Shown here: piece after piece, positions 1,484 to 43,228 of the stretch
How the letters are laid out: each line of letters begins with the position of its first letter
Numbering within the stretch: the first letter of the stretch is position 1
Assembly: GCA_964551255.1 (NCBI GenBank)
Contig: CAZKAW010000001.1
Span: 31,062 to 76,542 of the forward strand
Reading direction: 5' to 3'
From: an uncultured Gammaproteobacteria bacterium
GTDB lineage: Bacteria > Patescibacteriota > Microgenomatia > Daviesbacterales > UBA10151
DNA: 45,481 nt
Program-made: the position numbers and the translations under genes
The notes under the pieces: generated by a model
Databases searched by the model: none
Seen by the model: only the letters and a program-made list of their open reading frames with translations
What the model was told of the DNA's origin: nothing

Positions 1484-3175
1484 TTAATAAACTCTTTTTC
1501 TATAATACTTAACCCATTCTCTAATTTTTTTAAGTTTTGATAGAAAAAATAAGATAAGTATTATCAGGGCAGCAAAAGACAGAAGGTTTGACAAAAAACG
1601 AATTTGCGTATCGTATAATCTTCCTTCAATAGTGTGATTTCCTTTTCCCAAAATTATGGTCATTAGTCCCAGACTGTTATTTTCATATTCGACTTTTGTT
1701 TCCTTTCCATCTATAAATATTTTCCAATCCGGGAAATAATATTGAGAGAGTCTGAGAATGGTGTGGGAATTGGTATCGGCTTTAAATTTTAACCAGTTAG
1801 AGCCTTCTTCAAAATCATAAACTTTGGAATCACCGGTTAAGATCTGAAATCTTTCCTTTGCTAATTCAGCCGGCGGCTCTTTTGCAAAAATCGGTAAAAA
1901 ATCATAAATTGATCTTTTGATTTGTCTGTCCCAATTTTTTCCTGATAATAATTCTTTTTCAGAAATATCTATAAATTTTTCCGGCTTAAAATATAAAAAA
2001 TTAAGTGCTACCACCAAAGCAACTAAAATACCCCAAGTAATAATTCTCCTCTCTTTAGCAAAAAAGCTTCCCGACAAAAAAGAAACAAAAAATATAGTAA
2101 TTATTAAAAACCGCCAAGGGAATTGGAGATATTTAAGGGGTTCAATTGAGTCCCAGATAAACTGCGACCTGGGGTTTATCAGAAAAATCGATAGTAAAAT
2201 CATTGCCGAACAAAGCAGTATAAGATAAGCGGTACGCCTTTCCTTAAACCAGAAAAATGTAAGGGTAGACAGAGCTAAAATAAAACCTGTCAGGTGAGCC
2301 CATCCTATCTGATAAGAAAGTTTGTCTTTTTCTCCTCCCGGTACTTCTCTGACCGATGCTCCGTACCCCCAGGACCTTTCTAGGACTAATTTCCTAAGTC
2401 CCTTAAAATGTTCTGTATAAGAAAAGTAGCCTACTGTGGTAGTGTCTACATGCACTAAATTCTTCTCTGCTACCATAGGTATCAGGTAAAAGGCAGACAA
2501 AAGAAGACTGAATAAAAATGCTGCCAGACAAAAAGATAAAAACTTAATATTTTTCTTTACGATATAGTGGAAAAATATCCAAATCATGATTATGGGAATA
2601 AAAAGCATAGTTGATAAATTATGGGAAAGGCTTAAACCTGCCAGGGCCAGTGCAAAAAAAAGTGCATTTTTAATATTTGTGTGTTCAGATAGCATTGTCA
2701 CAGTGAGTAAAATGGCGGGGAAAAACATCATCGCCCACATCTCCCCCATTGCTCCCCTCACGTAAAAATCAACTGCATGATAAGGGGCAAAACTATAAAA
2801 AATAGCTGAGATACTTCCTCCTAAAGTACCCCAGAACCTGGAAGCAAAAAGATACATGAGAACAAAACTTCCTACAAAACTTACAGCAAACATAATCTTA
2901 ACGGAGAAAAGCAAACTTCCTGAAATAAGATAAGATAGCTCTCCAAAATAATAGGGCAGGGGAGCATAATAGTTAAAAAGAGGGTAACCGTACAGACCTC
3001 CTAAATCGGGTACCCACCGACAGGGAATTTGTCTATCTTTAAAACATTTGCCCATTTCATATAATCTGATTGTTTGTACATCATCATGGTAGGAAAAATC
3101 GGAAGATACAAAAAGCGGCCATAGCAGACTTAAAGTCAGTAGTAATCCAATCAAGAAAAATTTATTTTTTGACAT
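1484..3175 (-). CDS. Polytopic membrane protein, putative GT-C-type glycosyltransferase (tandem paralog P1 of 4)
   Basis: 563 aa. TM1 is followed by an acidic loop YHDD..IPCRWVPD..YGYPLFNYY. Shared motifs are YVRGAMGE, WGYGAS and QFPWRFL. The C-terminal beta-rich soluble domain (YYFPDWKIFIDG) ends in a terminal TM helix. From memory it resembles the COG5617 / PTPS_related membrane family; this is unverified. Confidence 0.55.
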   Translation of the reverse strand: MSKNKFFLIGLLLTLSLLWPLFVSSDFSYHDDVQTIRLYEMGKCFKDRQIPCRWVPDLGGLYGYPLFNYYAPLPYYFGELSYLISGSLLFSVKIMFAVSFVGSFVLMYLFASRFWGTLGGSISAIFYSFAPYHAVDFYVRGAMGEMWAMMFFPAILLTVTMLSEHTNIKNALFFALALAGLSLSHNLSTMLFIPIIMIWIFFHYIVKKNIKFLSFCLAAFLFSLLLSAFYLIPMVAEKNLVHVDTTTVGYFSYTEHFKGLRKLVLERSWGYGASVREVPGGEKDKLSYQIGWAHLTGFILALSTLTFFWFKERRTAYLILLCSAMILLSIFLINPRSQFIWDSIEPLKYLQFPWRFLIITIFFVSFLSGSFFAKERRIITWGILVALVVALNFLYFKPEKFIDISEKELLSGKNWDRQIKRSIYDFLPIFAKEPPAELAKERFQILTGDSKVYDFEEGSNWLKFKADTNSHTILRLSQYYFPDWKIFIDGKETKVEYENNSLGLMTIILGKGNHTIEGRLYDTQIRFLSNLLSFAALIILILFFLSKLKKIREWVKYYRKRVY

Positions 3176-4445
3176 CTTCGGGTTGTTTTACTCTCTGCGG
3201 GAGGTAGCGATAAATAAAAAATGCTGCAGCGCTTACAAAAACGGTTTGGAAGATACTTCTTGAAAAATTGTAGTCAATATTTAAACCCATCTGTCCCCAC
3301 AACTCTATCGAGCTAAGAGGGGGGGAAAGCGGGGAAAACAGTCCAAGCGAAAGCGAGGGCCCAAAAATAAAGGCCCCTCCCATATAACTGATAAGCATCA
3401 AAATTACCACAATCAAGTGTCTAAAATTAGAACTTATTAATTCAATAATCAAAAATGGTGTCAACCATAAAAACCACTGGACATGATAGTGAGTAAAAGA
3501 GAAAAACAGCAGTAGAAATATAAAAAATCTCTGCCACAAAAATGTCCCGTTTAAATTTTGATATAAAAGATAAAGGTAGAAAAAAATTACAGATCCTAAA
3601 AACAATATAATGCTTTCTCCTCCCGATATGGAGATTTGGGCGTAAAAACTCTTTAAAGTTTGATTTGCCAAAAGCGCCGTAGTTCTAAATCCGGATGAAG
3701 CCAAAAACGGCAGGATGGTGACAGCATAGACGGCCAGCCCCAAAAGGACTACCAAAAACCTTTTAATCCAACCGTTTAAAGAGGCAGCCAGTGGAATTAA
3801 AAGTAGAAGAGGAAATATTTTATATGAGCCGCCAATCCCCAAAAGGATTGAAGAGAAAAAAATTCTTTTTTCGAAGTTTACACTTTCCGCTTTTATAACC
3901 AGATAAAGAACCAATACTACAAAAAATGTGGGGACAATATCAAATTGACCAATCATATAAGTCGAATAAAGAGTCACCGGGTTAAAAATCCAAAAAATTA
4001 CTGCCCGCACCTGTTCTTTTTTGTTGGTAAAGAGGCGATAAAGGAAATAGGCAATAAGTAAATCAAATACCAGGTAGAATACCTTAAGCAACATAAGATG
4101 GGGAAAAAGCAGGGGGTTTCCGAAAGTACTTTTGGTATTAAACAGAAAAGTGCTGTGGAAATCAGGATTAGTGAAAGAAGTTAAAGCCCAATTTATCGGT
4201 CCCAAAGTAAAATATACGGCAGGGGGGTAGTTAAATAAAGCTACCGGATAGAATTGTAAAAGGATGTCGTTTTTATCCAAAGTAAAAGTGTAATCATAAA
4301 AATTTAAGATTTGCCCTTTGCCCAAAACATACCCGGCCAGATCAAAATGTACAATATCGGAATGAAAGGTGGCGGCCGAAAGAACTAACCTAATAAGCAC
4401 CCCCGTCAGTATAATCAAACCTAATTTTCCTTTTAAGAAGCTCAT
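3162..4445 (-). CDS. Polytopic membrane protein, possible GT-C-like glycosyltransferase
   Basis: 427 aa and very hydrophobic throughout. TM1 is followed by FHSDIVHFDLAGY (acidic first loop). It sits inside the paralog array and overlaps the P1 start by 14 nt. No specific family recognised. Confidence 0.4.
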   Translation of the reverse strand: MSFLKGKLGLIILTGVLIRLVLSAATFHSDIVHFDLAGYVLGKGQILNFYDYTFTLDKNDILLQFYPVALFNYPPAVYFTLGPINWALTSFTNPDFHSTFLFNTKSTFGNPLLFPHLMLLKVFYLVFDLLIAYFLYRLFTNKKEQVRAVIFWIFNPVTLYSTYMIGQFDIVPTFFVVLVLYLVIKAESVNFEKRIFFSSILLGIGGSYKIFPLLLLIPLAASLNGWIKRFLVVLLGLAVYAVTILPFLASSGFRTTALLANQTLKSFYAQISISGGESIILFLGSVIFFYLYLLYQNLNGTFLWQRFFIFLLLFFSFTHYHVQWFLWLTPFLIIELISSNFRHLIVVILMLISYMGGAFIFGPSLSLGLFSPLSPPLSSIELWGQMGLNIDYNFSRSIFQTVFVSAAAFFIYRYLPQRVKQPEDVKK

Positions 4446-4448
4446 AAT

Positions 4449-6089
4449 TTAAATTAGTGCCAGTACTAATGATACTAAAAATCCACCCAAAGAGGCAAAG
4501 TTTAAAATTTTTCTAAACTCTGTTTCTGCATAGTAAACTTGTACTTTGTGTTTGCCTTTTTCTATCAAAACACTTACTTGACCAAACGGTTCGCCGCTTA
4601 TAACCGGTGTACTCACATTATCAATCCTAGCGCTCCAACCTGGGAAATTATATTTATTTACATTAAGCCTTGTTGTTTTTTCTGTTTCTACTTCAAAGCT
4701 TAAGCTTAAATCATTTTGTTTTTCTATGTTTTTTATTCCTTCTTGAGGATAAACAGCAGGGAAGATTTGGTTTGGACGCATCTTGGTTGCTTTAGGCAAT
4801 CTTAAATACTCTTCCTGCGTTTTTAAATATTCACTACTTAAAGCGGGGAAAGGGATGTACTTATTTAAATAATACTCGTCTTTCCTGCCAAGAAAATCTT
4901 CCGGTCTAAAATAAAAAAAAGCAGGGATAATTAAAATTAAAACTAAAAAGAGAAAAATTTTCTTAAATTTGATTTCATCAAAAAGAATAAAAAATAGGGG
5001 AATAAGAAATGTAGTAAGTATCAAAAACCTCCAGGGAAATTGAAAATAGGCAAGCAGAGGCAAAATGTCCCAAATGGGTGTAGATCTAAAATTCATCAAA
5101 AATATGGAAATAAAAACTGCTGAGACTACCCAGGAGGCTATAATCTTTTTTTCCGGACTGATTTTTTTGAAGTTTAGGAAAAAATAAGCTACTCCAATTA
5201 TTAAAACAAGTAAATTAGCACTTCCCAGAAAAAAGGACATTCCATCATATGGCCCGGGTACCGAAGCTCCATACCCCCAATAAGGGGTAAGTAGTTGCTT
5301 TAGAGTGGGAAAATGATCGGCAAAATTAAATACCGTATCGTATTTCATCAGACTACTCTCCCAAAGAGCCGGTAGCCAAAAATATGAGCTTATCAGAAAG
5401 CCTAAAAAAACAGTTAAAATTGATTTAAAAAGATAACTTCTTTTATTATCTGAAATAAAAGTTTGTAAAATAACAAGGAGCAAAACTGCCGGAAAGAACA
5501 TAAAAGCCGTAATATTGTGCGACAAGACTAGGGAGGCAAGAGCAACTGCTCCGATCCCGACCCATTTAAAACTTTTTAAGCGAAGCTTTATTACCGATAA
5601 AACTAAAAGCGGCAGAAAAACGAAACTTATTACCTCCCCCATTGCTCCCCTGATATAGATATCGACAGCTCTGTAGGGTGTATAGATATAAAGCACTGCC
5701 CCAAGCAGATTTACTAGACTGCTTTTACAAAAGTGTCTAAGCAGTAAATACATAAAAATTGCAGAAGAAGGGATGCTTAGGAAAAATAGCGCCTTGATAC
5801 TGTCAACCAGTGACAAACCCAAAAGATGAAATATTTCAGCCAGATAAAAGGGCAGCGGGAAGACAAAATTAAAAAGCGGATAACCGAATCCAAAACTCAG
5901 ATCCGGCACAAACCTGGGGGGAATTTGTCCAATTTTGAGGGTACGATCCATTTCATAAAGCCAGGCAATGTGCAAATCATCCGACGCCCCGTAAAATCCA
6001 GGAACAAATAAAGCCCAGCCGGCCGGGATAGATAAAAGTAAAATCACCAACCACCAGTATTTATTCAAAAAATTTTCTACTTTTTCCAT
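4449..6089 (-). CDS. Polytopic membrane protein, putative GT-C-type glycosyltransferase (paralog P2)
   Basis: 546 aa. Motifs: ASDD..IPPRFVPD..FGYPLFNF, IYIRGAMGE, WGYGAS, QFPWRFL, and a C-terminal domain YNFPGWSARIDN plus terminal TM. Its start overlaps the end of P3 by 29 nt. Confidence 0.55.
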   Translation of the reverse strand: MEKVENFLNKYWWLVILLLSIPAGWALFVPGFYGASDDLHIAWLYEMDRTLKIGQIPPRFVPDLSFGFGYPLFNFVFPLPFYLAEIFHLLGLSLVDSIKALFFLSIPSSAIFMYLLLRHFCKSSLVNLLGAVLYIYTPYRAVDIYIRGAMGEVISFVFLPLLVLSVIKLRLKSFKWVGIGAVALASLVLSHNITAFMFFPAVLLLVILQTFISDNKRSYLFKSILTVFLGFLISSYFWLPALWESSLMKYDTVFNFADHFPTLKQLLTPYWGYGASVPGPYDGMSFFLGSANLLVLIIGVAYFFLNFKKISPEKKIIASWVVSAVFISIFLMNFRSTPIWDILPLLAYFQFPWRFLILTTFLIPLFFILFDEIKFKKIFLFLVLILIIPAFFYFRPEDFLGRKDEYYLNKYIPFPALSSEYLKTQEEYLRLPKATKMRPNQIFPAVYPQEGIKNIEKQNDLSLSFEVETEKTTRLNVNKYNFPGWSARIDNVSTPVISGEPFGQVSVLIEKGKHKVQVYYAETEFRKILNFASLGGFLVSLVLALI

Positions 6090-7728
6090 AAAGGCTTAGA
6101 TATAAAACTATTAGCATAGTGAGACCTGTTAAGGTATTGGCAACCGTTCTAATCGGGGTATCGGTAAATTGGGCAAAAATTAAATGCCTGCCAACCGGTA
6201 AATCCAAACTAATCCTTTTGACATAATTATCGTTTGAATATTTCAGCGCTTCCCCATTTTCATAAACTTTCCAGTTCGGAAAATCAAAAACAGGTATTTC
6301 TATTTTTGATGGTGAGGAAACTATTAAATCTAACCTCCAGTTATTAGATCTTTTTTCAAAAGATTTAATGTCTGCTTCCCCGCTTCTGATAATAGGTTCC
6401 GACGGAGCCGGTTCTATCGGCTCCCCTGCTCCCATAGGTAAGTAATCTCGGATAGAGGCCTTTTGTTGAGTTTCATAAAGCTCACCGCCCAGTTTTTCTT
6501 TATCGGTTAAATTTAAATAAAACTCCCGCGGCTTAAAGTAGTTCCAGTTTAGAAATACTGTTACAATAATCAAAACCCCCAATACCACTCTACCCCACAC
6601 CCCCTTTAAACTATATATTAAAAACCCTGCCAATAAAGAATTGGCAAAAATCGTAACAGACAAAAATCTCCAGGGAAATTGGGCAAACCTTAAAATCCCC
6701 AGACCTTCCCAAATAAAAGCAGATCTGCCGTGGGTCATAAAAACAGACAAAACAAAGAAAACAAACATGCTGAGGCAAATTAAAAGTAATCTCCGGTTAA
6801 TCTTTCTTAAAATAATTAAAGCCGGCAAAGATAGTACTGCCACCGGCCAGTGGGGCCAACCTATTTGAAAGGAGATGGTATCCCCCGCTCCCGGAAAGGA
6901 AGCACCATACCCCCACTTTCTGTCAAAAAATAACTGATATAAGGTGGCAAAGTGAGCCCTAAAATCCAAATCCAGTCTCGTGAGATTATCTATTTGAACT
7001 AAGTTTCTTTCAAAAAAAGCCGGTATGACAAAAAAAGCTGCCAGCCCAAAACCTAATCCCAGGGAAAAAAATACCCTCCTAATAATTTGTCCTTTCCTAC
7101 CCCAAAAAATTATTATAAAAAAAGTCAGGATAACGGGTAAAAAAAGGGTGGATAAAATAGTATGACTTGTTAAAAGAATAGTCAGAGAAAAAGCCAGACC
7201 CAAAAAATTTTTATTATTAAATTCTTTTGAAATTTTCAAACCAAAATATAAAATCAGAGGGATAATTGCTATGGCAAAACTTTCAGCTATGGCACCCCGT
7301 ACGTAAATATCAAGCGCCCGGTATGGAGCAAACATATACAGCACTGCCGAAGCAAGGGCTGCATATTTACTTTCCAGCAATTCTTTCACCAAAAAATACA
7401 TGGCAAAAGCAGCTGAGAAGGCAGCAACTAAAAATAAAGATTTGGCTCCCCCGATAAATCCCACAAAAAAGCTAACTACTCCGCCAAGGTAATAAGGAAA
7501 AACATTATAATAGTTAAAAAGAGGGTAACCGTTCCCATATCCCATTTCGGCAACCCACCGGCAGGGAATTTGTAAGTCCGAAAAGCACTCCCGCATTTCA
7601 AAAATTCTCATTACCTGCAAATCATCATGGTGAGAAAAATAACCGGGTAAAAAAATCGGCCAAACAATAAATGCCGAAAGATAAAACAGCAATAGGACAG
7701 GCCAGTAAATTTTAAGTAAATTTTTCAT
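6061..7728 (-). CDS. Polytopic membrane protein, putative GT-C-type glycosyltransferase (paralog P3)
   Basis: 555 aa. Motifs: HHDD..IPCRWVAE..NGYPLFNYY, YVRGAIAE, WGYGAS, QFPWRFL, FDFPNWKVYENG plus terminal TM. Confidence 0.55.
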   Translation of the reverse strand: MKNLLKIYWPVLLLFYLSAFIVWPIFLPGYFSHHDDLQVMRIFEMRECFSDLQIPCRWVAEMGYGNGYPLFNYYNVFPYYLGGVVSFFVGFIGGAKSLFLVAAFSAAFAMYFLVKELLESKYAALASAVLYMFAPYRALDIYVRGAIAESFAIAIIPLILYFGLKISKEFNNKNFLGLAFSLTILLTSHTILSTLFLPVILTFFIIIFWGRKGQIIRRVFFSLGLGFGLAAFFVIPAFFERNLVQIDNLTRLDLDFRAHFATLYQLFFDRKWGYGASFPGAGDTISFQIGWPHWPVAVLSLPALIILRKINRRLLLICLSMFVFFVLSVFMTHGRSAFIWEGLGILRFAQFPWRFLSVTIFANSLLAGFLIYSLKGVWGRVVLGVLIIVTVFLNWNYFKPREFYLNLTDKEKLGGELYETQQKASIRDYLPMGAGEPIEPAPSEPIIRSGEADIKSFEKRSNNWRLDLIVSSPSKIEIPVFDFPNWKVYENGEALKYSNDNYVKRISLDLPVGRHLIFAQFTDTPIRTVANTLTGLTMLIVLYLSLYGKSRKFFE

Positions 7729-9424
7729 TTTTTTTACTTCGGAAAAGTATAACCATAAGTATCAAAACAGAAGCTACAGTTATTATATTACTTATTTTCC
7801 TTACTGGTGTGTCTTCTAAACGCGCCTCAATTTTGTGCCTGCCTTCCGGCACATTAAAAGTTATCAGACCCAGACAATACTCTTGTCCCCGGCAGTCGTC
7901 ATACCAATGATTAACTTTTCCTCCATCAACTCTTACTTCCATCCCCGGAAAATCAAAAAGAGGCAGTCTTATGGTGGCAGTTTTTTTAACATCTATCTCA
8001 CCTTTTTGATAATTACTTCCCTTTTGAAAACTAATAAGATCCGCCTGTCCGTCTAGAGTATCGGGCAGCAGAGGGGCTTTTTTATTTGGCGGGAGTTTAG
8101 CATATACGGGCAAATAATCAAAAATACTGATGGTAAGTTGTTTCTCCCAGTTCTGCCCGGAAAACTTATCGGAATCGGAAATATTAAGCCAGGCCTTGGG
8201 CTGGAAAATGGGAGCGTGTAATATAAACAGTAAGACTATAATAGTTATACCCGAGCCCAAACTTACTTTTTTACCATAACTTTCTATATTATATATGGCA
8301 AAGGCGCCCAAAACGGAAAGAATAAAAGTGCTGTCGGATAAAAACCGCCAGGGAAATTGCAAAAGTGAAAAAGCAGGAATATTTTCCCAAATAAAAGTTG
8401 ACCTTTGATGCAATAAAAAAAGTACTGCTAACTCCAAAACACCCAGCATCAACATTAAACCTGATAGTTCTTTCATCTTTTTAAGATTAAACAAAGCCAG
8501 TACAACAGCCAAAAGCCCCAAAGCCCAGTGAATTATTCCTGTGGATAGTGATAAATCATCATTGGCCCCCAAATATGAAGATCCATACCCAAAATGATTG
8601 GATAAAAATAGTTGCTTTACACTGACAAAATGCTGTCTCCAGTCAAAATACCCTCCTGTTAAAGTTTCCAGATGGACAAATTTTCCTTCAAAAATTACCG
8701 GTATGGTAAAAAAGGAAGCCACCCCCAACCCTAGCAAAAAGGCAAAAAATACTTTTGGAAAAACTTTCCATTTTTTCCAGATTATAATTTGAGATATAGC
8801 CCAAATTAGTGACAGGGGCAGGAAAATAAAAGACATTAGGTTGTGAGTTGTCAAAAGCAAGGCAGTTGATAAAGCAAGCCAAATTAAATATTTTACTTTA
8901 CCCTGATTTATCAGTTGAAAAATTGACCAAAAAATCAGGGGGAAAAATACAAAAGACCAAAATTCGGATAATGCTCCCCTCACGTAAACTTCCGTAGCTT
9001 TATACGGAGCATAGCTGTAAAGCATCGCCCCTACAAAAGCAGGCCAACTGCCAAACATGGCCTTTAAAAAAACAAACATGGTGACAGCAGAAAGCACAAA
9101 GCCCAAAATAAATAAAATCTTAACCGTATCAATAACCTGGATACCCAAAATATTCAGTAAACCCCCCAGATAAAAAATGCTGGGTGGGTAAAAATTAAAT
9201 TGGGGATAGCCATATTGATATCCCATGTCGGGAATCCATCTACAGGGAATTTGTAGATCCGAAAGGCATTTAACCATCTGGTGAACCCTGAAGGCTTGCA
9301 AATCATCCTGCATGGGAAAAAACCCGGGACGAATCAGAGAATAAAAGGTGGGCAAAATTAAAAGCAAAAGCAGAAGAAAAATTTTTAGCATCTTAAGGTA
9401 GTACTTGATATAAAACCGTGGCAT
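7712..9424 (-). CDS. Polytopic membrane protein, putative GT-C-type glycosyltransferase (paralog P4)
   Basis: 570 aa. Motifs: MQDD..IPCRWIPD..YGYPQFNFY, YVRGALSE, FGYGSS, QFPWRFL, FDFPGMEVRVDG plus terminal TM. The ATG at 9424 has a GGAGGG Shine-Dalgarno (9433-9438, minus strand) 8 nt upstream. An alternative ATG at 9391 would remove the 32-nt overlap with the upstream gene. Confidence 0.55.
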   Translation of the reverse strand: MPRFYIKYYLKMLKIFLLLLLLILPTFYSLIRPGFFPMQDDLQAFRVHQMVKCLSDLQIPCRWIPDMGYQYGYPQFNFYPPSIFYLGGLLNILGIQVIDTVKILFILGFVLSAVTMFVFLKAMFGSWPAFVGAMLYSYAPYKATEVYVRGALSEFWSFVFFPLIFWSIFQLINQGKVKYLIWLALSTALLLTTHNLMSFIFLPLSLIWAISQIIIWKKWKVFPKVFFAFLLGLGVASFFTIPVIFEGKFVHLETLTGGYFDWRQHFVSVKQLFLSNHFGYGSSYLGANDDLSLSTGIIHWALGLLAVVLALFNLKKMKELSGLMLMLGVLELAVLFLLHQRSTFIWENIPAFSLLQFPWRFLSDSTFILSVLGAFAIYNIESYGKKVSLGSGITIIVLLFILHAPIFQPKAWLNISDSDKFSGQNWEKQLTISIFDYLPVYAKLPPNKKAPLLPDTLDGQADLISFQKGSNYQKGEIDVKKTATIRLPLFDFPGMEVRVDGGKVNHWYDDCRGQEYCLGLITFNVPEGRHKIEARLEDTPVRKISNIITVASVLILMVILFRSKKNEKFT

Positions 9425-10871: not shown

Positions 10872-10931
10872 TACTTAATTGTACTTCCCTAATCACCTCT
10901 CAGCAAGCTTTCAGTAAGAATTATGCAAATT

Positions 10932-12401: not shown

Positions 12402-12415
12402 ATTTATTTTTGCAG

Positions 12416-14508: not shown

Positions 14509-14517
14509 AATTTTCCT

Positions 14518-16715: not shown

Positions 16716-16721
16716 TTAACT

Positions 16722-35585: not shown

Positions 35586-36316
35586 CTGCCGCCTTTCTTC
35601 CAGGAGACAGCAGAAAGAAAAGGATAAAACATATCTTCTTGCTCATCGATATCTAGAATATGACTCTCATTATGGCTAGTAAATTTTAAATCAGGTATAC
35701 CGGAAATTATGGCAATCGGTTTACCCTCAGCTCCTTCTCCCATTTCCAACACCGCAGCAGTTGCCAGACTGTCAGGTAAATTAGAAGTCTCCATTTTAAA
35801 TTCTCTCCCGAATAAATCAGGTGTTCCTCTATAATCTTTTAGAGGTTTAAAGCCGAAATACCCGATTGCTATCCCCACCACCCCTCTTCTTAAAGGAATT
35901 AACCTTGAATCGGTAATAACTATCCCCAAATTTTTAATATTAAATTTTTCTCTTAAAAATTTCCAGATATTTCCGGCTGATTTTTGCGGGTCTTTTGGCC
36001 AAAGTATGTAATACCCTGCCCCGTTACTTTCGTCAATCCCGGAGGATGCCACCAGAATATTATTTTTGATGGTGTGCATTATCAGCCCGTCAGGCGCGGT
36101 TTCTCTTGGTAAATATTTGTCCGCTTCTTTTATAGCCAATTTATCTTTATCGGGAAATTTCGAAATAGCAAGACACCGGCCTTCCCCAATTGATACCACT
36201 TTTGAAGTAATTGCCAATACCGAATTTTCTTTTAAATCTTTAATTTCCGAGAGTAACTGCCAAAGGTCATCTTTCGGCGGTAAAAATTTCCTGGTTTTGA
36301 TTGCTTTGACTATCAT
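35582..36316 (-). CDS. CofE-like (F420-0:gamma-glutamyl ligase family) protein
   Basis: 244 aa. ITSKVVSIGEGR, SSGIDESN, VITDSRLIPLRRGVVGIAIGYFG, AAVLEMGEGAEGKPIAII parallel the CofE motifs as I recall them. Confidence 0.6.
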   Translation of the reverse strand: MIVKAIKTRKFLPPKDDLWQLLSEIKDLKENSVLAITSKVVSIGEGRCLAISKFPDKDKLAIKEADKYLPRETAPDGLIMHTIKNNILVASSGIDESNGAGYYILWPKDPQKSAGNIWKFLREKFNIKNLGIVITDSRLIPLRRGVVGIAIGYFGFKPLKDYRGTPDLFGREFKMETSNLPDSLATAAVLEMGEGAEGKPIAIISGIPDLKFTSHNESHILDIDEQEDMFYPFLSAVSWKKGGR

Positions 36317-36335
36317 CTCAGTTGATAGTTTAGCA

Positions 36336-36341
36336 TATAAT
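36336..36341 (+). promoter_or_regulatory. Consensus TATAAT -10 box 7 nt upstream of the ATG at 36349; candidate leaderless start
   Basis: TATAAT at 36336-36341, then taaacag, then ATG. No Shine-Dalgarno and no convincing -35. Confidence 0.3.
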
Positions 36342-36348
36342 TAAACAG

Positions 36349-37836
36349 ATGATTCCCTATTTTCAAAAAAGGCCCCACCTCATAATTTTGGGACTGATTC
36401 TTTTAACAGGTCTATTTTTTCGCTCTTTCCAGGTAATAGAAAGGTTTGAATTTGCCCATGACGGTGATTTATATTCCTGGATAGTCAAAGATATTTTAGT
36501 AAACGGCCACTTCCGTTTAATCGGTCAACTTACTTCCGCTCCGGGAATTTTTATTGGACCTCTATTTTATTATTTACTTGTTCCTTTTTTTCTTATTACA
36601 GGCATGGAACCGGTGGGAGTAGTTATTTTAGCAATACTTACCGGCCTTCTGGCTATCTTCAGTTATTATTTTGTTTTATCAAAACTTTTTAGAAAAGAGG
36701 TTGGCCTGATAGCGGCATTTTTATACGCGGTGCTTCTTGCAACCGCGGCTTCCGACCGCTGGGTGGTACCGACCATCACTACCTCCCTTTGGGCTATTTG
36801 GTATTTTTACAGTATTTTAATGATAAGCAGAGGAAGTTTTTCCGTTCTTCCAATTTTGGGGGTTTTAATTGGACTTATTTGGCATGTTCACATCGCTATA
36901 ATTCCTGCCTTAACCGCCATACCGGTAGCCCTTATGCTATCCAGCAAAGTTCCCTCTTTTAAACAGACTGTAAAATTTATTCTTGCCCTCTTTATAGTCT
37001 CCTTACCTTTAATTATTTTTGAGTTAAGACATAATTTTTTACAAACATCAGCATTTTTGAATAATTTTTTTGTTTACCGGGAAGGCCCAACGGGTTTGTA
37101 TAAACTTCAGTTAGTAACGGAAATGATAACAAAAAATATTAATGCTTTATTTTTTACTCCTCAGTCATTTAATTTTACGAACAATTTTTTCTTTGTGTTA
37201 ATAATACTTTTGTCCGCATTAGCAGCAGCAAAAGCAGACCTTATTTCTTTTAAACAGGTTTTCACTTTATATGCCTGGATTTTTGGGGTAATATTATTTT
37301 TTTTCCTTTCATCTTCGCCTATTTCCGAATATTATTTTATTAATATTCACGTAATATTTATTGCCATCATCAGCTTACTTCTCTATCTGCTGTTTAGATC
37401 CAGCCTGTTGGGAAAAGTAGCAGTCTTTTTGTTATTAAGTTTACTTCTTATAAAAAATGTTAACTTTCTTATCACTCAGGATTTTTACCACAAAGGTTAT
37501 TTGGAAAAAAAGAAGGTGGTAGAGTTTATTAGTGAGGATGCCCAAAGAAAAGGTTATCCCTGTATTGGCATAAGTTATATAACTTCACCGGGAGAAAATG
37601 TGGGATTTCGCTATCTTCTTTATTTAAAAAAACTACACTTGGTTCATCCTTCTTTAAACGTTCCTGTTTATAATATTGTCATCCCTGACGAGTTAGCATT
37701 GGAAGAAGTCAAACAAAAATTTGGCCATATTGGCATTATCCCTCCTGTTAATATTCCTGCCAAGGAAGTTATTCAAACAAGTTGTAAAATCCCTAACACC
37801 AATATAACTGATTCCATGTTTGGGTATGTGGAATAA
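36349..37836 (+). CDS. Polytopic membrane protein, putative GT-C-like glycosyltransferase (family B, member 1)
   Basis: 495 aa. FAHDGDLYSWIVKDI..LIGQLTSAPGIFIGPLFYY, FELRHNF, and a C-terminal GYPCIGISY..GFRYLLY domain. Confidence 0.5.
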   Translation: MIPYFQKRPHLIILGLILLTGLFFRSFQVIERFEFAHDGDLYSWIVKDILVNGHFRLIGQLTSAPGIFIGPLFYYLLVPFFLITGMEPVGVVILAILTGLLAIFSYYFVLSKLFRKEVGLIAAFLYAVLLATAASDRWVVPTITTSLWAIWYFYSILMISRGSFSVLPILGVLIGLIWHVHIAIIPALTAIPVALMLSSKVPSFKQTVKFILALFIVSLPLIIFELRHNFLQTSAFLNNFFVYREGPTGLYKLQLVTEMITKNINALFFTPQSFNFTNNFFFVLIILLSALAAAKADLISFKQVFTLYAWIFGVILFFFLSSSPISEYYFINIHVIFIAIISLLLYLLFRSSLLGKVAVFLLLSLLLIKNVNFLITQDFYHKGYLEKKKVVEFISEDAQRKGYPCIGISYITSPGENVGFRYLLYLKKLHLVHPSLNVPVYNIVIPDELALEEVKQKFGHIGIIPPVNIPAKEVIQTSCKIPNTNITDSMFGYVE

Positions 37837-37837
37837 C

Positions 37838-38686
37838 TTAAGATTTTAAATCTCTTATGGTTTTAGGTAAAAGGGGCAGCAGATCAGAGGCTAACGCTCC
37901 TGAATCACCAATTTTTTTCCTTAGTAATTTACCTGCCAGTCCGTGGATATAAACTCCGATACATGAAGCCTCAAAAGGTTTTAGGCCCTGAGCCAAAAGT
38001 CCGGCTACTACCCCTGCTAAAACATCACCGGTGCCTGCTGTTGCCAAAAGAGGGTTGGCAAAAGGACTAATTTTAACTTCACCAGAAGGTGCCGCAATCA
38101 CAGTTTTGGCTCCTTTTAAAATCACTATCTTACTCCACTTTTTGGCAAAATGCGTTGCTACCTTGTTCCTACTTCCCTGGATTTCATCAACTGATAATCC
38201 AGTTAATCTGGACATTTCTCCCGGATGGGGGGTTAACACTAATTCTCCACTTAGTTTAATCCACCAGTTATCTATTTGGGCAAGTAAGCTAAGTCCATCA
38301 CCATCAATTACAGTTTTGTATCGATTATTCGAATAATTGGTACAAAAAGCTTTCATTACTTCTCTTGCTCTATCATCCTTTCCCAAACCTGGACCAATTA
38401 GAACTACATCATACTCTAAAAGTTTATTTTCAACTTCTCGTAAAAGAAAGGTTACTTCTGGAAGCTTTCGGGAAACTATTATTTTTATATCTTTTGTTGT
38501 TGCTAAAGTTACCAATCCTGCTCCAACTCTATATGCAGCGGCACAAGATAAATATGCTGCACCCGGATAATTTTTAGAGCCAGCAATTACAAGTACTTTA
38601 CCGAAAGTTCCTTTATTTGCATACTTCGGTCTTTTTGGCAATTTGGAACTTACCCAATTTTCAGTTATTTTTTCAAACTTTTTCAT
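37838..38686 (-). CDS. nnrD: ADP-dependent NAD(P)H-hydrate dehydratase (YjeF C-terminal domain)
   Basis: 282 aa. GTFGKVLVIAGS..PGAAYL, TPHPGEMSRL, ATAGTGDVLAGVVAGLLAQG are the carbohydrate-kinase (YjeF_C) signatures. Confidence 0.85.
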   Translation of the reverse strand: MKKFEKITENWVSSKLPKRPKYANKGTFGKVLVIAGSKNYPGAAYLSCAAAYRVGAGLVTLATTKDIKIIVSRKLPEVTFLLREVENKLLEYDVVLIGPGLGKDDRAREVMKAFCTNYSNNRYKTVIDGDGLSLLAQIDNWWIKLSGELVLTPHPGEMSRLTGLSVDEIQGSRNKVATHFAKKWSKIVILKGAKTVIAAPSGEVKISPFANPLLATAGTGDVLAGVVAGLLAQGLKPFEASCIGVYIHGLAGKLLRKKIGDSGALASDLLPLLPKTIRDLKS

Positions 38687-40197
38687 CTGAAAAATGTTGA
38701 GTTTAACAAATAAGGATTTACGGGAGACTTTATTTGCTCCTCAGTTAAATAATATTTTTGAATTTCTGCTAAATCTATTCTCATCTTTTTTGCCGGGTCC
38801 GTGGTAATTTTAAGATCGGTAATCCTCCAACCCATACTGACAGGATCTTCAAAATCGGCCTGGGAATCGTATATTACTAAATAAGTTATTTTTTGTTTGC
38901 TAAAAGGGTGCGCTTGTCTTTGGGGAAATTGCTTTTGTGTAAAATCCAAAGCATACCAAGGTTGATATGCCCATCTTTCCGGAGTAAAGATAAAATACCC
39001 AAAATCACTTTCCGCATCCTTAAATATAGTTTCGGCAACCAGTTTGTTAAATGACCAGCTGTTTTTAGATCTGTAGGCTGCATCAAAACTGAAATTTTTG
39101 ATATAACTTATTCCAATATACATATTCCAAAAAAGTAGAGGCAAAAAGATAATATAAAATAATTTTTTTGGAAAAAAATTTATGAAAGCTGTAAATAACA
39201 TAATCATTAACGGTAAAAGAGGCCAATAATAACTGCTCCAAAGGGGTTTTAAGGTAAGATGAATAAACCAATAACCCAGATAAAAATACAAAAACAAAAA
39301 ATAAATTTTCCTTGCCGGTGATTTTATTTTGAAAATCAGGATGAAAAACAAAACAGAATATACCCAGCTCAGAAATCTGTTATCTTGTGTCAGCAAGAAA
39401 AATGTATCGGATAAGATACCCTTTATTTTTTCCACCAAAAATATAAACAAACTAAACTGATGTTTACCCAGTTGTGACTGGACATAATTTAAAATAGAAC
39501 GAACTTGCAAAAAGTTGTGCCGAAGATCAAAAAGTATAAAGGTTGACAGCGGCAAAAGAATAATTGGTAAAACTAACAGGTGTTTTAACAATCCTTTTTT
39601 AAAAAGAAAAAAAGTTAAAAATAAAATGGTCAGTGCCAAAACGGGAATGCCGAATGCGATTTCAAACTGAACGGTGAAACCTAGGGTAAGTAAGGCCAGT
39701 GCTAAATATTTTGCTTTTTTATTGTTTAAATACTTCAGAAATAAATAAAAAAATACCGGGGATAGTAGTACGGCACCATAAGGCGGAAAAAACATCTTTA
39801 GACCATACACAGGATTAATAATGGAGTTTGCACTGTAAAGAAGGGTTGCCAAAGCAGCTGTAAAAGTATTAAATAATTTTTGAGTAACAAAGAAAAATAC
39901 TACCAGTGTTAAAATTGAAAGTCCCCACCAAAACCAGCCAATGAGGATAGGGTTGCCGGAAGAAACAAAAAATGCCGGCACGTTAAGATAATACCAGAGC
40001 GGTCCGTGAAAAACCCCACCCACGGATGTATGTGAACCTATTAAGGTAACCGGCTTGGCAGTAACAATCTCTTTTATCAGAAAAAAATCCCGGGAGATAT
40101 CAACATCAAAGCGGATATCGCCAAAGGCTAACCACCAAGCGCTTAAGATAACATTTAAAGCAATAAGAAAATAAATTAAATAGTACCGATTTCTCAT
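38683..40197 (-). CDS. Polytopic membrane protein, putative GT-C-like glycosyltransferase (family A, member 2)
   Basis: 504 aa. DVDISRDFFLIKEIV..LIGSHTSVGGVFHGPLWYY, FDLRHNF. The C-terminal domain is clearly paralogous to that of 41687-43228. Confidence 0.5.
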   Translation of the reverse strand: MRNRYYLIYFLIALNVILSAWWLAFGDIRFDVDISRDFFLIKEIVTAKPVTLIGSHTSVGGVFHGPLWYYLNVPAFFVSSGNPILIGWFWWGLSILTLVVFFFVTQKLFNTFTAALATLLYSANSIINPVYGLKMFFPPYGAVLLSPVFFYLFLKYLNNKKAKYLALALLTLGFTVQFEIAFGIPVLALTILFLTFFLFKKGLLKHLLVLPIILLPLSTFILFDLRHNFLQVRSILNYVQSQLGKHQFSLFIFLVEKIKGILSDTFFLLTQDNRFLSWVYSVLFFILIFKIKSPARKIYFLFLYFYLGYWFIHLTLKPLWSSYYWPLLPLMIMLFTAFINFFPKKLFYIIFLPLLFWNMYIGISYIKNFSFDAAYRSKNSWSFNKLVAETIFKDAESDFGYFIFTPERWAYQPWYALDFTQKQFPQRQAHPFSKQKITYLVIYDSQADFEDPVSMGWRITDLKITTDPAKKMRIDLAEIQKYYLTEEQIKSPVNPYLLNSTFFR

Positions 40198-41676
40198 TTA
40201 ATTATTAAACCCCCACAGAGGCAAGAGCTGGCGCTCTTTTTTAAAACAAATATCTTTATCAAATTTATCAACACCTGGAACAATCACTCCGAGAACACCA
40301 AATCTTACATCCACTTCGTCTTTGGAAATTGTCCAGGGGTTTACAATATTATAAACAGGTATGTCATCTCCGGCCGTAATTACCGATAATTTATCGTACC
40401 AGAAGAGATACCTAAAACCATTTCCCCCGCCTGGTTGACTTTCAATAAAATTAACTGCCACACAAGGATAATTCTTATTTTCAGAGTGTTTCTTTATATA
40501 TTCAATAACTTTTTCTTTATATAAAAAACCTCCCAAATCATCGGGCTTTTGTATAAGCCAAACTGTTACTACAATCAAATATACTGCTAACAAACTATTA
40601 ACAAATGGAAATTTTTTAAAGAAACCGTCAATCCTAACCAAAATAAGAGCCAGCATCAAAAATAAAATGATAAAAAGGTTGTTGAAATAATATTCCGTGA
40701 TAATTCTTTTGGAAAAAAACTGACCAATAATTACCAAAAAATACCAGGCAAGCAAGATTACTGTTTGTCTGCCGGTCAAAGCTTTGAAATACCAAAGATA
40801 AAAAATTGCTACCAACAGTAAAAAGGGCAATAGAGAAACTAAAGATGAGTTCAGTAAAACTGCAGGTCCGCTTAAAACAAATGCCCCTGCCAAAGATCTC
40901 CCCCCGGAATCAAAAACCTTAATCAATCTGCCGGTTCCCCTTAAATTATCGTGATCATTGTAAACAGCATTGATTAAACTATTAATTTGACCAAAGCCGT
41001 GTCTTATTTCAAAGAGAAAAAAAGGGGCCAAAAAGATACCCACTATCAAAAACGATATAACTGTAGTTTTTAACCTAAATTTAGGCTTATTTTTATCAGA
41101 CAACAAATAAGCAAAAGGTAATAAAATAAGAAGCGGAATAAAGGCAATATGTATATGCCAAATTAAACCAACCAAGATACTTAAAAGTATGAGGGGAAGA
41201 CTGCCTTTTATCGTAGACAGTAAAACATATAAGTACCAGACGGCCCAAAGAATAGTTGGTTGGGTAGGTACTACCCAGCGGTCTAAAAACACTGCGCCGG
41301 GAGAAACAGCATATAGAAATGACCCGATTAAACCTACTTTTTTCCCAAAAAATTTACTAAACACCCGGTAAATACTTATAATGGTAGCCATACTGACAAC
41401 AGTGGTAACAACTGCAGCACTAAGAGGATTCATCTTAAAAAGGGCAAAAGCAAAAGCGATTAAATAATAAAACAGGGGACCGATAAAAACTCCAATGATA
41501 CTTGTTTCCTGACCTATTAATCGAACGTGACCATCTATTATAATATCTTTGGCAATCCAGGCAAAAAGGTCTTGATCGTGACCAAAGGGAAAAAATATTT
41601 CCAGTTTATAGATTCTAAAAAATAGCCCTAAAAGCAAGATAAGCAGCAAGATTCTTTCTGAAGATAAATATTTCAT
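40198..41676 (-). CDS. Polytopic membrane protein, putative GT-C-like glycosyltransferase (family B, member 2)
   Basis: 492 aa. FGHDQDLFAWIAKDI..LIGQETSIIGVFIGPLFYY, FEIRHGF, C-terminal NYPCVAVNF..GFRYLFW. Paralog of 36349-37836. Confidence 0.5.
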   Translation of the reverse strand: MKYLSSERILLLILLLGLFFRIYKLEIFFPFGHDQDLFAWIAKDIIIDGHVRLIGQETSIIGVFIGPLFYYLIAFAFALFKMNPLSAAVVTTVVSMATIISIYRVFSKFFGKKVGLIGSFLYAVSPGAVFLDRWVVPTQPTILWAVWYLYVLLSTIKGSLPLILLSILVGLIWHIHIAFIPLLILLPFAYLLSDKNKPKFRLKTTVISFLIVGIFLAPFFLFEIRHGFGQINSLINAVYNDHDNLRGTGRLIKVFDSGGRSLAGAFVLSGPAVLLNSSLVSLLPFLLLVAIFYLWYFKALTGRQTVILLAWYFLVIIGQFFSKRIITEYYFNNLFIILFLMLALILVRIDGFFKKFPFVNSLLAVYLIVVTVWLIQKPDDLGGFLYKEKVIEYIKKHSENKNYPCVAVNFIESQPGGGNGFRYLFWYDKLSVITAGDDIPVYNIVNPWTISKDEVDVRFGVLGVIVPGVDKFDKDICFKKERQLLPLWGFNN

Positions 41677-41686
41677 CTTAATTAAT

Positions 41687-43228
41687 TTATCTTAAAAATA
41701 CCTTATCCAACAAGTATGGATTAGGTTCTATTTTAATTTCTTCGTCATTTAACAGATATTTTTCAATCTGAATAAAGTCAAAGCGAAAAGTTTGATTGGG
41801 CAACCGCTCTATTTTTACATCACTAATTCTCCAGCTGGTACCGTTAAGTTCCTGTCTATCCGGCGGCGGGTCTGCCTCAATTAAATAAGTAAGCGGTTTT
41901 TTAGTTGATGAAAAAGAATTTATGTTCGGAAAATATTTTTTTGTATAAATCATTGCATACCTTTGTTGATATGCAAACCTATCCGGAGAAAAATTAAAAT
42001 ACCCGAAATCACCTTTGGCATCCTCATAGATTTTTTTGGCAATAGAAAAGTTAAAAGCCCAACTGTGCGGACCTCTTTCACTGATATCTGTTTTAAAATC
42101 CGAAATTGACAAAATTCCGCTGTAAAGATTGGTTAAATATAAAGCTATAAAGGAAAAAATAAAAATTTCTTTTTTAATAAATTTTTTATATGAACAAAAT
42201 ATAATAATTGCCATGGGCAAAAACGGCCAGAAATAATTCCCTACTCCTCCTTGATAAAACAGGGAGAGACCCCAAAAACCGAAAAAAAGATAGGCAAACA
42301 ATATATAGATTGTTTTTAGAGCGTTTTTGCTTTTTTTAAAGGCCACAATTAATCCTGCAAAAAAGATTAATGAAAAAATTATGGTTATCAAATTTTTCCC
42401 GGGGGCAAAGAAATCAAAGAAATCAAAAAATAGAGCTTTAAAACGATCTGAAAATATACTTAAGAATTCTACTTTAAAGCTTTCTTTTCCATTTAAATAT
42501 TGGATTATTGCTTGAAGTTGTAACCCGTCATGTTTTATATCAAATAAAATAAAGGTTGACAAAGAAATCAATAAAATGACATATGAGAAAAAATGGAAAA
42601 GCTTTTTCTTTTTAAGCAAAAAGTAGATTAAAAAGAAAGTTATAGCAAAAAGTAGTGGTACCCCAAAAGCCATCTGGAATTGAATAATAAGACCCAGGAT
42701 AAATAAACTAATGGTTAAATCTGTAAATTTAAGGTTGGTAATATAGCGGTAAAAAAACCAAAAAAATATTGGAAATAAAAATACTGCTCCGTAAGGATTA
42801 TAAAAATTTTTCAAACCAATTGAAGGATTAATAATTGAATTGGCAGAAAGGAGCAAAACAGAAAGAAGGGCAATTTTATAATCAAATAATTTTTTTGCTG
42901 CCCAAAATATCAAACTTAAAAAAATTACAGACAATCCCCACCAGAACCAACCCAAAACTAAAGGATTTCCTCCACCCAAAAAGAAAGCCGGCAAATTTAT
43001 ATAAAACCACAAAGGACCATGAAAAAGACCGGGGATGGCCCCTGAACGGGGACCCAGTAAAGTAAAGTGATTATTCCTAATGATGTCATCCATTACCAGA
43101 AGGTCCCGGGAAACATCCACATCATAGTGAATATCACCATTTAGCAACCAATAAGCACTAAGGAGTATATTGAAAACAATTAGGGCGTGGATCAACAGGT
43201 CAAACTTAATCAATTTGGATAATGGCAT
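41687..43228 (-). CDS. Polytopic membrane protein, putative GT-C-like glycosyltransferase (family A, member 3)
   Basis: 513 aa. DVDVSRDLLVMDDII..LLGPRSGAIPGLFHGPLWFY, FDIKHDG. Its start overlaps the secA stop by 19 nt. Confidence 0.5.
   Translation of the reverse strand: MPLSKLIKFDLLIHALIVFNILLSAYWLLNGDIHYDVDVSRDLLVMDDIIRNNHFTLLGPRSGAIPGLFHGPLWFYINLPAFFLGGGNPLVLGWFWWGLSVIFLSLIFWAAKKLFDYKIALLSVLLLSANSIINPSIGLKNFYNPYGAVFLFPIFFWFFYRYITNLKFTDLTISLFILGLIIQFQMAFGVPLLFAITFFLIYFLLKKKKLFHFFSYVILLISLSTFILFDIKHDGLQLQAIIQYLNGKESFKVEFLSIFSDRFKALFFDFFDFFAPGKNLITIIFSLIFFAGLIVAFKKSKNALKTIYILFAYLFFGFWGLSLFYQGGVGNYFWPFLPMAIIIFCSYKKFIKKEIFIFSFIALYLTNLYSGILSISDFKTDISERGPHSWAFNFSIAKKIYEDAKGDFGYFNFSPDRFAYQQRYAMIYTKKYFPNINSFSSTKKPLTYLIEADPPPDRQELNGTSWRISDVKIERLPNQTFRFDFIQIEKYLLNDEEIKIEPNPYLLDKVFLR

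Follow-up and report, generated by a model that had tools for sequence, protein, structure and literature searches.

The locus described here raises the question of what fourteen large polytopic membrane proteins, all encoded within one 45,481-nt stretch of bacterial DNA (the window, i.e. the whole stretch that was analysed), are doing side by side. The answer that we consider probable is that two lineage-conserved gene arrays encode fourteen glycosyltransferases of the GT-C type together with enzymes that supply their donors, and that the system serves surface glycosylation outside the membrane. The window has a G+C content of about 37%. The closest relatives of its proteins are encoded in assemblies of Candidatus Daviesbacteria and other Microgenomates/Patescibacteria (50–73% identity), and some of the related contigs are 1.0–1.15 Mb long; judged from these similarities, the window is part of a Candidatus Daviesbacteria-like (Microgenomates/Patescibacteria) genome. 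Open reading frames (ORFs) are named by their start coordinates, and L001–L006, L008 and L009 denote loci of relatives, which were compared as regions of about 21 kb (about 21.6 kb each for array 1). Scans with Pfam and NCBIfam profiles covered the 38 ORFs in the window that encode 120 aa or more. A lookup of the exact 6061 sequence in public assemblies gave no match, and the genomic context was taken from orthologues.

Families, fold and first-loop motif of the fourteen proteins

All fourteen polytopic ORFs named in an initial annotation of the window are found in the ORF list with the starts given there, and a Kyte–Doolittle scan gives 7–14 hydrophobic segments for each. Their share of the window, which had been put at roughly 45%, is slightly larger: 21,705 nt, or 47.7% of 45,481. 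The suggestion of at least four sequence families also stands; all-against-all BLAST yields five groups.

Family A comprises four paralogues on the minus strand, 1484–3175, 4449–6089, 6061–7728 and 7712–9424, which are 28–37% identical to one another (32–35% for 1484 against the other three). They match PTPS_related (PF10131; cut-off 26.4 bits) with 32.1, 29.7, 39.6 and 27.3 bits, respectively. The last is also the only protein to pass YfhO (PF09586; 32.3 bits, cut-off 28.5), with a match that spans profile positions 65–383 of 835. Orthologues are 62% identical for 1484 (in L001 and L004), 53–62% for 4449 and 58–72% for 7712.

Family B includes two PMT_2 proteins of subgroup B1, 36349–37836 (plus strand; PF13231, 29.7 bits) and 40198–41676 (minus strand; 39.7 bits), which are 38.5% identical. 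Its subgroup B2, all on the minus strand, consists of 38683–40197 (orthologues in L005 and L006 at 69–71% identity), 41687–43228, which is 41.6% identical to 38683, and 34062–35585, which finds 38683 with E = 3e-20 and 14518 with E = 1e-9 in BLAST. The family also takes in the GT-C domain of 14518–16674 (minus strand). This protein is a fusion: a GT2 domain (residues 1–225; Glycos_transf_2, E = 1e-27 at residues 7–168) is followed by a PMT_2 GT-C domain (residues ~233–718; PMT_2 at 298–456).

The PMT_2 protein 9393–10871 (minus strand; PF13231, E = 1.3e-13) and the ArnT/PMT-like protein 12416–13777 (minus strand; PMT_2, E = 3.6e-23, with PMT and STT3 also above cut-off) have a weak BLAST link to family B only. 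The link of the short PMT_2-like protein 16722–17882 (plus strand; 386 aa) is marginal; with orthologues at 65–73% identity, this is the best conserved of the fourteen. Finally, 3162–4445 (minus strand) has no BLAST link to the other thirteen.

Nine of the fourteen score above the Pfam gathering thresholds of GT-C clan families. These are the four family A proteins, with PTPS_related, and 9393, 12416, 36349, 40198 and the C-terminal two thirds of 14518, with PMT_2; PMT (PF02366) is passed by 12416 and 14518 only. Members of the clan concerned, CL0111, include PTPS_related, PMT, PMT_2, GT87 and PIG-U (PMC7801869). Three of the other five (3162, 34062 and 38683) have no Pfam match of their own, and two stay below the PMT_2 threshold (16722 with 25.0 bits against 26.1; 41687 with 17.9 bits).

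Relatives of these five proteins connect them to the same clan. Many orthologues of 16722 match PF13231, and their NCBI name is GT39 family. A profile of 38683, 41687, 34062 and their orthologues (alignment A4) aligns with that of the PMT_2-positive paralogues (A5) over 395 columns, with an hhalign probability of 99.9% and E = 4e-35, and the acidic residues discussed below are in register. Among 25 orthologues of 3162, 17 match GT87 (PF09594; best E = 6.5e-12) and 8 match PIG-M, and the profile of this family matches PIG-U/GAB1, which has the GT-C fold (E = 1.7e-6). In public databases several orthologues of the fourteen are already annotated as ‘glycosyltransferase family 39 protein’, ‘DUF2029/GT87’ or ‘PTPS-related’.

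Structure models of two proteins point in the same direction. The AlphaFold2 model of 6061, chosen to represent family A and built from a 30-sequence alignment, has a pLDDT of 87.7 and a pTM of 0.89. In a Foldseek search of the PDB, its matches at ranks 1–25 are all GT-C enzymes (STT3, AglB, PglB, ArnT, AftD, Pmt4, EmbA/B/C, DPY19 and Pmt1), mostly with probabilities of 0.99–1.0 (0.77–0.92 for Emb), as against at most 0.18 for MFS transporters. For the AlphaFold model of 3162 (pLDDT 85.9), ranks 1–23 are likewise all GT-C, with PIG-U, STT3, ALG3, ALG6, ArnT and Pmt4 among them; the TM-scores are 0.55/0.59 for ALG3 and 0.56/0.49 for ALG6, and PimE (9dm5) lies outside the top 50 fold matches. 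Overall, GT-C probabilities of 0.9–1.0 stand against values of at most 0.18 for MFS, MATE and WaaL. A role of 3162 as a Wzy/WaaL-type polymerase or ligase was considered and rejected, as WaaL (7tpg) has a probability of 0.03.

The model of 6061 also contains a C-terminal β-sandwich domain (residues 446–521), which precedes the last transmembrane (TM) helix and is a feature of family A. Extracytoplasmic carbohydrate-binding modules of AftD, Emb and GT136 enzymes bind glycan acceptors (PMC11127046; bioRxiv 10.1101/2019.12.22.885152), and the modelled domain is reminiscent of these.

The initial annotation had drawn attention to an acidic motif in the loop after the first TM segment. The motifs that it quoted are all located directly past the first hydrophobic segment, in each of the fourteen proteins. 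They read HDD, SDD or QDD in family A (1484, 4449, 6061, 7712), FADEA in 9393, FDEAWY in 12416, GDEGRD in 14518, HDGD or HDQD in 36349 and 40198, DVDxSRD or IDSARD in 38683, 41687 and 34062, FHSDI in 3162 and NFDGLEY in 16722.

The acidic residues are invariant among the orthologues of every family. This holds for D35 and D36 in family A (30 sequences, with the four paralogues included), for H19, D21 and D42 in the 3162 family (25), for D49 and E52 in the 16722 family (24), for D33 and D37 in the 38683/41687/34062 family (9, including a Chisholmbacteria homologue) and for D38 in the 36349/40198/14518 family (9). The stretch FADEAIY is invariant in 5 orthologues of 9393, and WDEAWY in 4 orthologues of 12416. 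An equivalent acidic pair in the first external loop forms the active site of ArnT, Pmt1 and EmbB (PMC7801869), and in the alignment of 12416 with ArnT (5ezm; E = 6e-7) the two DE pairs coincide.

Two features bear on the side of the membrane on which this loop lies. Short N-terminal tails carry many Lys and Arg residues, and in 14518 the first TM segment is preceded by the GT2 domain, which depends on nucleotide sugars. From the positive-inside rule and this domain order, the acidic loop would be extracytoplasmic. Taken together, sequence profiles, motif and the two models support the view that all fourteen proteins are GT-C-fold integral-membrane glycosyltransferases; two findings would have spoken against it, a transporter or other non-GT-C assignment and acidic residues that vary among orthologues, and the profile and structure comparisons and the orthologue alignments gave neither.

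Putative donor supply and its pairing with the transferases

GT-C enzymes of this kind call for lipid-linked donors, and the window does encode the three GT2 domains that had been proposed as their source. One is the soluble protein 13774–14508 (minus strand; Glycos_transf_2, E = 1.5e-29), which resembles polyprenyl-phosphate sugar synthases; its best PDB relatives are dolichyl-phosphate-mannose synthase (DPMS; 5mlz, 1e-17), GtrB (5ekp, 6e-15) and ArnC (1e-13). Another is the N-terminal domain of 14518, which matches the NCBIfam models for PgfS, ArnC, PpgS and Dol-P-hexose transferase, all below their equivalog cut-offs. The best NCBIfam match of both proteins is PgfS. The remaining one, 17879–19063 (minus strand; Glycos_transf_2 and GtrA_DPMS_TM), appears to be a full-length DPMS-type polyprenyl-phosphate hexose synthase, since its residues 3–345 align to Pyrococcus furiosus DPMS (5mlz) with E = 1.8e-29.

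The same alignment settles the nature of the GtrA-like domain noted earlier. The domain is present, as the C-terminal TM domain of 17879; a separate GtrA flippase is thereby ruled out. The NCBIfam equivalog scores for the ArnT, ArnC, PgfS and DPMS-type models are all far below cut-off, and by these comparisons none of the glycosylation proteins is orthologous to a characterised enzyme.

Each GT2 is paired with a GT-C, as the gene arrangement demonstrates: 14518 is a covalent GT2–GT-C fusion, 13774 overlaps 12416 by 4 nt, so that the two appear translationally coupled, and 17879 abuts 16722. The fusion is found in Daviesbacteria-type genomes. In L003, from a Microgenomates genome that is less closely related, two neighbouring genes 4 nt apart (961–3174) take its place; they encode a GT2 of 232 aa (47% identity) and a 503-aa PMT_2 protein (50% identity). 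Fused in some genomes and split in another, the pair lends support to the view that the synthase supplies the transferase.

The last gene of array 1, 4–1482 (minus strand), had been described as a Wzx-like flippase, and its match to Polysacc_synt_3 (E = 1e-50) confirms a MOP/Wzx-type protein; the NCBIfam MOP flippase model is matched with E = 5e-43, below its cut-off. An orthologue occupies the same place in L001, L003, L004 and L008.

Genes for nucleotide sugars lie at the other end of this array. The expected rfbABCD and gmd genes are borne out by Pfam and NCBIfam as rmlABCD and a gmd-like gene, all on the minus strand: gmd-like at 19063–20073, rmlD at 20099–20989, rmlC at 20986–21552, rmlB at 21527–22579 and the long form of rmlA at 22548–23630. 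The NCBIfam models are passed by rmlB and rmlA (rmlA_long); for the other three they give the best match, below the equivalog cut-off.

Gene order, conservation and density of the two arrays

The GT-C genes form two arrays, array 1 at 1484–17882 and array 2 at 34062–43228, with nucleotide-sugar and housekeeping genes (rml/gmd, CAP, NYN, PIN, prfB, ftsEX, M23, tsaE) filling the roughly 16 kb between them. The run of polytopic ORFs on the minus strand at 1484–16674 is split by the GT2 13774 and by the secreted protein 10932. In array 2, five polytopic ORFs are interleaved with genes for a folate/F420-type glutamate ligase and an NAD(P)HX dehydratase, on both strands; this array includes neither a GT2 nor a flippase gene. 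Altogether 17 glycosyltransferase domains are encoded within 45 kb, of which 14 are GT-Cs of the extracytoplasmic type. The region had been called a ‘supercluster’. All fourteen genes are real, but they lie in two arrays, one of them interleaved with unrelated genes, and that the two form one functional unit would be conjecture.

Each of the fourteen ORFs has orthologues at 52–73% identity that lie in the same order in other genomes, so the pattern is not due to chance. For array 1 this order is rml/gmd, DPMS-type GT2, 16722-like, GT2–GT-C, GT2, PMT_2, three to four family A genes and Wzx. It is kept in three Daviesbacteria-type loci (L001, L004, L008) and, with small differences, in L003; L002 and L009 are further copies of array 1. 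Array 2 is syntenic beside secA in L005 and L006, again with positional orthologues. Family A paralogues are 28–37% identical to each other and 52–72% identical to their positional orthologues in four other genomes, which means that the duplications are old and that every copy has been retained.

The initial annotation had called the density of GT-C genes exceptional. This is true in comparison with bacteria in general and not within the lineage. Counts based on hidden Markov models built from alignments made in this analysis give 14 GT-C genes for the window (45.5 kb), 7 for each array-1 locus of relatives (8 in L001, which has an extra PMT_2 gene), 10 for L003, 6 for each array-2 locus and 5 for a Chisholmbacteria locus. 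As the relatives thus carry 5–10 GT-C genes in regions of about 21 kb, the density is a trait of the lineage and not specific to the window, and is still high by ordinary standards. For comparison, three such enzymes are listed for Bacillus subtilis in a review (PMC8035078), and for an entire Parcubacterium genome Castelle et al. counted 20 glycosyltransferases of any type (PMC5220378).

Other observations concern the loci of the relatives. The orthologue of 12416, which in the window lies in array 1 beside GT2 13774, is found in array 2 beside secA in L005 (5531–6907) and L006 (3139–4509), so genes have moved between the arrays. Contig CAZCNP010000002.1, which contains L005, is labelled ‘uncultured Gammaproteobacteria bacterium’; its proteins are 54–84% identical to those of the array-2 region of the window and are syntenic with them, and from this similarity the taxonomic label looks wrong. 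In L004, two genes follow Wzx. The product of the first (16480–19932; about 1150 aa) is conserved and has a signal peptide as well as hydrophobic segments in its interior; that of the second (19932–21662) is about 670 aa long. The same pair occurs in L001, L003, L008 and L009, and would fall just past the left end of the window. Neither protein has a Pfam match, a weak DUF3863 hit being listed; they may belong to the same system.

The secreted protein within array 1, 10932–12401 (minus strand; 489 aa), is not a GT-C. It starts with a Tat signal (RRDFL, in SRLTRRDFLVK...), and its local G+C content of 0.424 compares with about 0.39 in its neighbours. Searches against Pfam, NCBIfam and PDB sequences gave no match, and PDB profile searches gave weak ones; 1.84 billion representative proteins include just 18 relatives, and L001, L003, L004 and L008 have no counterpart at this place. 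Its GNEP and ExGxP motifs, which the relatives conserve, recall the acid/base and nucleophile signatures of clan GH-A glycosidases, so that it is possibly a hydrolase of this type.

Genes from about 23.8 to 34 kb encode a CAP-domain protein, an asparaginase fragment, a NYN protein, an aspartyl protease-like protein, a PIN protein, PrfB, FtsE, FtsX, an M23 peptidase, a PT-rich surface protein and TsaE. Within this region, the interval from rml to prfB contains a run of short ORFs at 24980–27774 (minus strand), namely a 179-aa N-terminal asparaginase fragment, NYN, a retropepsin-like aspartyl protease domain and PIN_3. The G+C content falls to 0.337 at 26–28 kb, and the run could be a degraded or mobile region.

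The ligase in array 2, 35582–36316 (minus strand), belongs to the CofE/F420-ligase family; its best NCBIfam match is TIGR04132, ‘putative folate metabolism gamma-glutamate ligase’ (243.7 bits against a cut-off of 350), and its position within the array is kept in L005 and L006. Beyond array 2, secA (minus strand) extends from 43210 to the end of the window, where it is cut by the edge. The listed ORF (43210–45291, 693 aa) starts at an internal Met, and the frame is open to the edge and matches the 903-aa orthologue in L005, which rules out a truncated gene or pseudogene. Neither tRNA genes nor Rfam matches were found in the window.

Proposed pathway, competing explanations and known systems

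Family membership, the fold of two proteins, motif conservation, gene pairing and locus conservation are all direct observations, and the reading that they support best is a multiplied multi-component transmembrane glycosylation system. For its working we infer the donors, the flipping route, catalysis and the acceptors. By homology, RmlABCD and the Gmd-like dehydratase would make activated sugars in the cytoplasm, and the three DPMS/GtrB/ArnC-like GT2 domains (17879, 13774 and the N-terminal domain of 14518) would attach single sugars to polyprenyl phosphate at the inner face of the membrane. The lipid-monophosphate sugars would then be brought to the outer face, for which the Wzx/MOP protein 4–1482 and the DPMS-type TM domain are candidate routes. 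Judging from fold, motif and topology, each of the fourteen GT-Cs would there transfer a sugar to an extracytoplasmic acceptor. A glycopolymer associated with the wall or anchored in the membrane is the most likely acceptor; a second plausible class consists of surface proteins rich in Ser, Thr and Pro, of which 32454–33638 is an example. At most three donors are made locally for fourteen non-redundant transferases, all of which have been retained, and this suggests that each donor serves many distinct linkages or acceptors.

Several points weigh against this reading. PDB profile searches with the two family B alignments (A4 and A5) gave no match, so that the link of this family to the GT-C enzymes comes from hhalign and BLAST. 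The fold is supported by models of two of the fourteen proteins, 6061 and 3162, both of which are helical bundles, and the Foldseek TM-scores are moderate (0.36–0.59). The function of PF10131, to which family A belongs, is listed as unknown (PMC7801869), and in literature searches this family appeared only in that way. No stand-alone GtrA is encoded in the window, nor is a priming phosphoglycosyltransferase, a polymerase, an LCP ligase or a cytoplasmic GT-B enzyme, so the acceptor pathway cannot be reconstructed from it; Pfam scans of the window recognised no genes for the synthesis of acceptors such as lipoteichoic acid, wall teichoic acid, O-antigen or rhamnan. Polyprenyl-phosphate-rhamnose is not known as an established donor, and the rml genes may therefore serve an unrelated polymer. 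Lastly, the two arrays may be functionally independent.

Of the rival explanations, it is hardly credible that the ORFs encode transporters or other polytopic proteins without the GT-C fold, in which the acidic residues are incidental. The sole point in its favour is that three proteins lack a Pfam match and two stay below threshold, and it is opposed by the Foldseek probabilities (at most 0.18 for MFS, MATE and WaaL against 0.9–1.0 for GT-C), the profile links to PMT_2 and GT87 and the invariance of the motif. It is also improbable, if less so, that some paralogues are catalytically dead scaffolds, like PIG-U, or are associated with a flippase, like Agl23. Among proteins of solved structure, PIG-U/GAB1 is indeed closest in sequence to the 3162 family; however, orthologues of 3162 match the enzymatic families GT87 and PIG-M, and every family has the invariant first-loop motif and many other invariant polar residues. 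The model TIGR03663, ‘flippase activity-associated protein Agl23’, matches 9393, 12416 and the GT-C domain of 14518, but with scores of 37–48 against a cut-off of 126 bits. That no dedicated flippase for polyprenyl-monophosphate sugars is evident would nevertheless suit such a role.

The remaining two alternatives concern what is glycosylated and by how many systems. The GT-Cs might mainly O-glycosylate secreted or surface proteins on disordered Ser/Thr/Pro-rich linkers, as do actinobacterial Pmt, streptococcal GtrB/PgtC2 and PgfS/PgfM1; we regard this as a serious alternative, though on balance the less likely one. Streptococcal GT-Cs of the YfhO family, which work in pairs with GtrB-type synthases, add sugars to Ser/Thr-rich regions (PMC11092751), and here both 13774 and the N-terminus of 14518 find PgfS as their best NCBIfam match. 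A candidate O-glycosylation acceptor could be 32454–33638 (plus strand; 394 aa), which adjoins array 2. This protein without Pfam match appears to be secreted and C-terminally anchored: it has a signal peptide, two Pro/Thr/Ser-rich linkers (up to 60% Ser/Thr in 30 residues) and, at its C-terminus, a TM segment (...TNPFVWGG...) with a basic tail that resembles a sorting or anchor signal. Its orthologue in L005 (19055–20308, minus strand; 35% identity) shares these features and likewise lies beside array 2. Nevertheless, 32454 is tied to the arrays by position only, and fourteen non-redundant transferases far exceed known systems of protein O-glycosylation. The β-sandwich of family A and the GT87/ALG-like enzyme suit glycan or glycolipid acceptors, and a Wzx-type flippase implies an oligosaccharide linked to a lipid diphosphate. 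Although 12416 and 14518 pass the cut-off for PMT (PF02366), Pfam finds no MIR domain in any of the fourteen proteins. Since bacterial Pmt proteins are not known to contain MIR, PMT-like activity is still conceivable.

That the arrays are independent systems with different products, brought within 45 kb by mere proximity, is a serious minority view. It is in keeping with the 16 kb of rml/gmd, CAP, NYN, PIN, prfB, ftsEX, M23 and tsaE genes between them, with the interleaving of array 2 by the NAD(P)HX dehydratase and ligase genes on both strands, with its want of a GT2 or flippase and with the separate recovery of relatives' loci (L001–L004 and L008 as against L005 and L006). On the other hand, without a donor synthase array 2 must rely on others, and the nearest are in array 1; the GT-C domain of 14518 and the enzymes of array 2 belong to one sequence family, and the position of 12416 orthologues in L005 and L006 indicates that genes move between arrays.

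The multi-component glycosylation system preferred here has counterparts elsewhere, and its general scheme has been outlined by Rismondo et al. 2021 (PMC8035078). GtrA/GtrB/Gtr*, CsbB/GtcA/YfhO and GacI/GacK/GacL (PMC8035078, PMC11127046) share with it a GT-A-fold synthase that is genetically paired with a GT-C carrying an acidic motif in an outer loop, as well as Pfam families (PMT_2 and, by the partial match of 7712, YfhO); a Wzx-type protein, here a candidate flippase, is encoded as in the GacK variant. These three-component systems are one-to-one pairs, whereas here fourteen GT-Cs face three synthases, one of which is fused to a GT-C, and no stand-alone GtrA is present. The four tandem PTPS_related (PF10131) paralogues, from a family without a characterised member, and the uncultured host from the Candidate Phyla Radiation (CPR) are further differences.

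In mycobacterial assembly of lipomannan, lipoarabinomannan and arabinogalactan (PimE, Mpt, Emb, Aft; with polyprenyl-P-mannose and decaprenyl-P-arabinose), many non-redundant GT-Cs, one of GT87 type among them, likewise use few lipid-monophosphate donors to make complex glycans outside the membrane, and some carry extra β-sandwich domains, as family A does. There is no close sequence kinship: AftD and Emb are fold matches only, and PimE (9dm5) is not a top match of 3162. The window also lacks genes of the decaprenyl-phosphate-arabinose pathway, and its genes are packed in two arrays in a genome of about 1 Mb. The likeness to the ArnC/ArnT pathway of lipid A aminoarabinose modification lies in the alignment of 12416 with ArnT, DE pair included, and in GT2s that resemble ArnC. 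Orthology to ArnT and ArnC was rejected, since the equivalog scores are far below cut-off (54.6 against 567 bits for 12416 and ArnT, about 65 against 529 for ArnC) and arn operon context is missing; neither arnA, arnB and arnD nor lipid A genes were found in the window.

The archaeal and eukaryotic Dol-P-Man system (DPMS; ALG3/6/9/12, PIG-M, PMT) follows the same logic, a series of GT-Cs that act at the far face of the membrane, with lipid-monophosphate sugars as donors. Here, 17879 has the full architecture of P. furiosus DPMS, and the 3162 model reaches its highest TM-scores with ALG3 and ALG6 (0.55–0.59). Unlike that system, the context is bacterial, with no STT3/AglB/PglB orthologue and no MIR, and the likeness holds at the level of fold and clan only. 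A further-reaching proposal is that an assembly line of at least fourteen non-redundant GT-Cs acting on few polyprenyl-monophosphate sugars would be the CPR counterpart of the lipoarabinomannan/arabinogalactan pathway or of the ALG pathway of the endoplasmic reticulum, with 14518 as a single polypeptide in which donor synthesis may be linked to translocation and transfer, and with a product that coats both the cell and its PT-rich proteins and is central to the CPR envelope and host attachment; this is speculative and, in our estimate, unlikely.

The system is thus of a known kind, multi-component extracytoplasmic glycosylation, and is unusually expanded here. Full-text searches on CPR/Patescibacteria with GT-C or envelope glycosylation found no paper on a GT-C expansion in CPR bacteria, and no relevant work turned up in literature searches in which Daviesbacteria, Microgenomates, CPR or Patescibacteria were combined with GT-C, mannosyltransferase or dolichyl-phosphate-mannose. 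For heterologous biochemistry, the locus offers three candidate lipid-sugar synthases, a natural synthase–GT-C fusion, the PF10131 family and a candidate glycoprotein acceptor. The locus bears on both the structure and the biogenesis of the cell envelope of CPR/Patescibacteria. Fourteen GT-Cs, conserved gene for gene, are a large investment for a reduced genome, and predict an elaborate surface glycan that is assembled outside the membrane.

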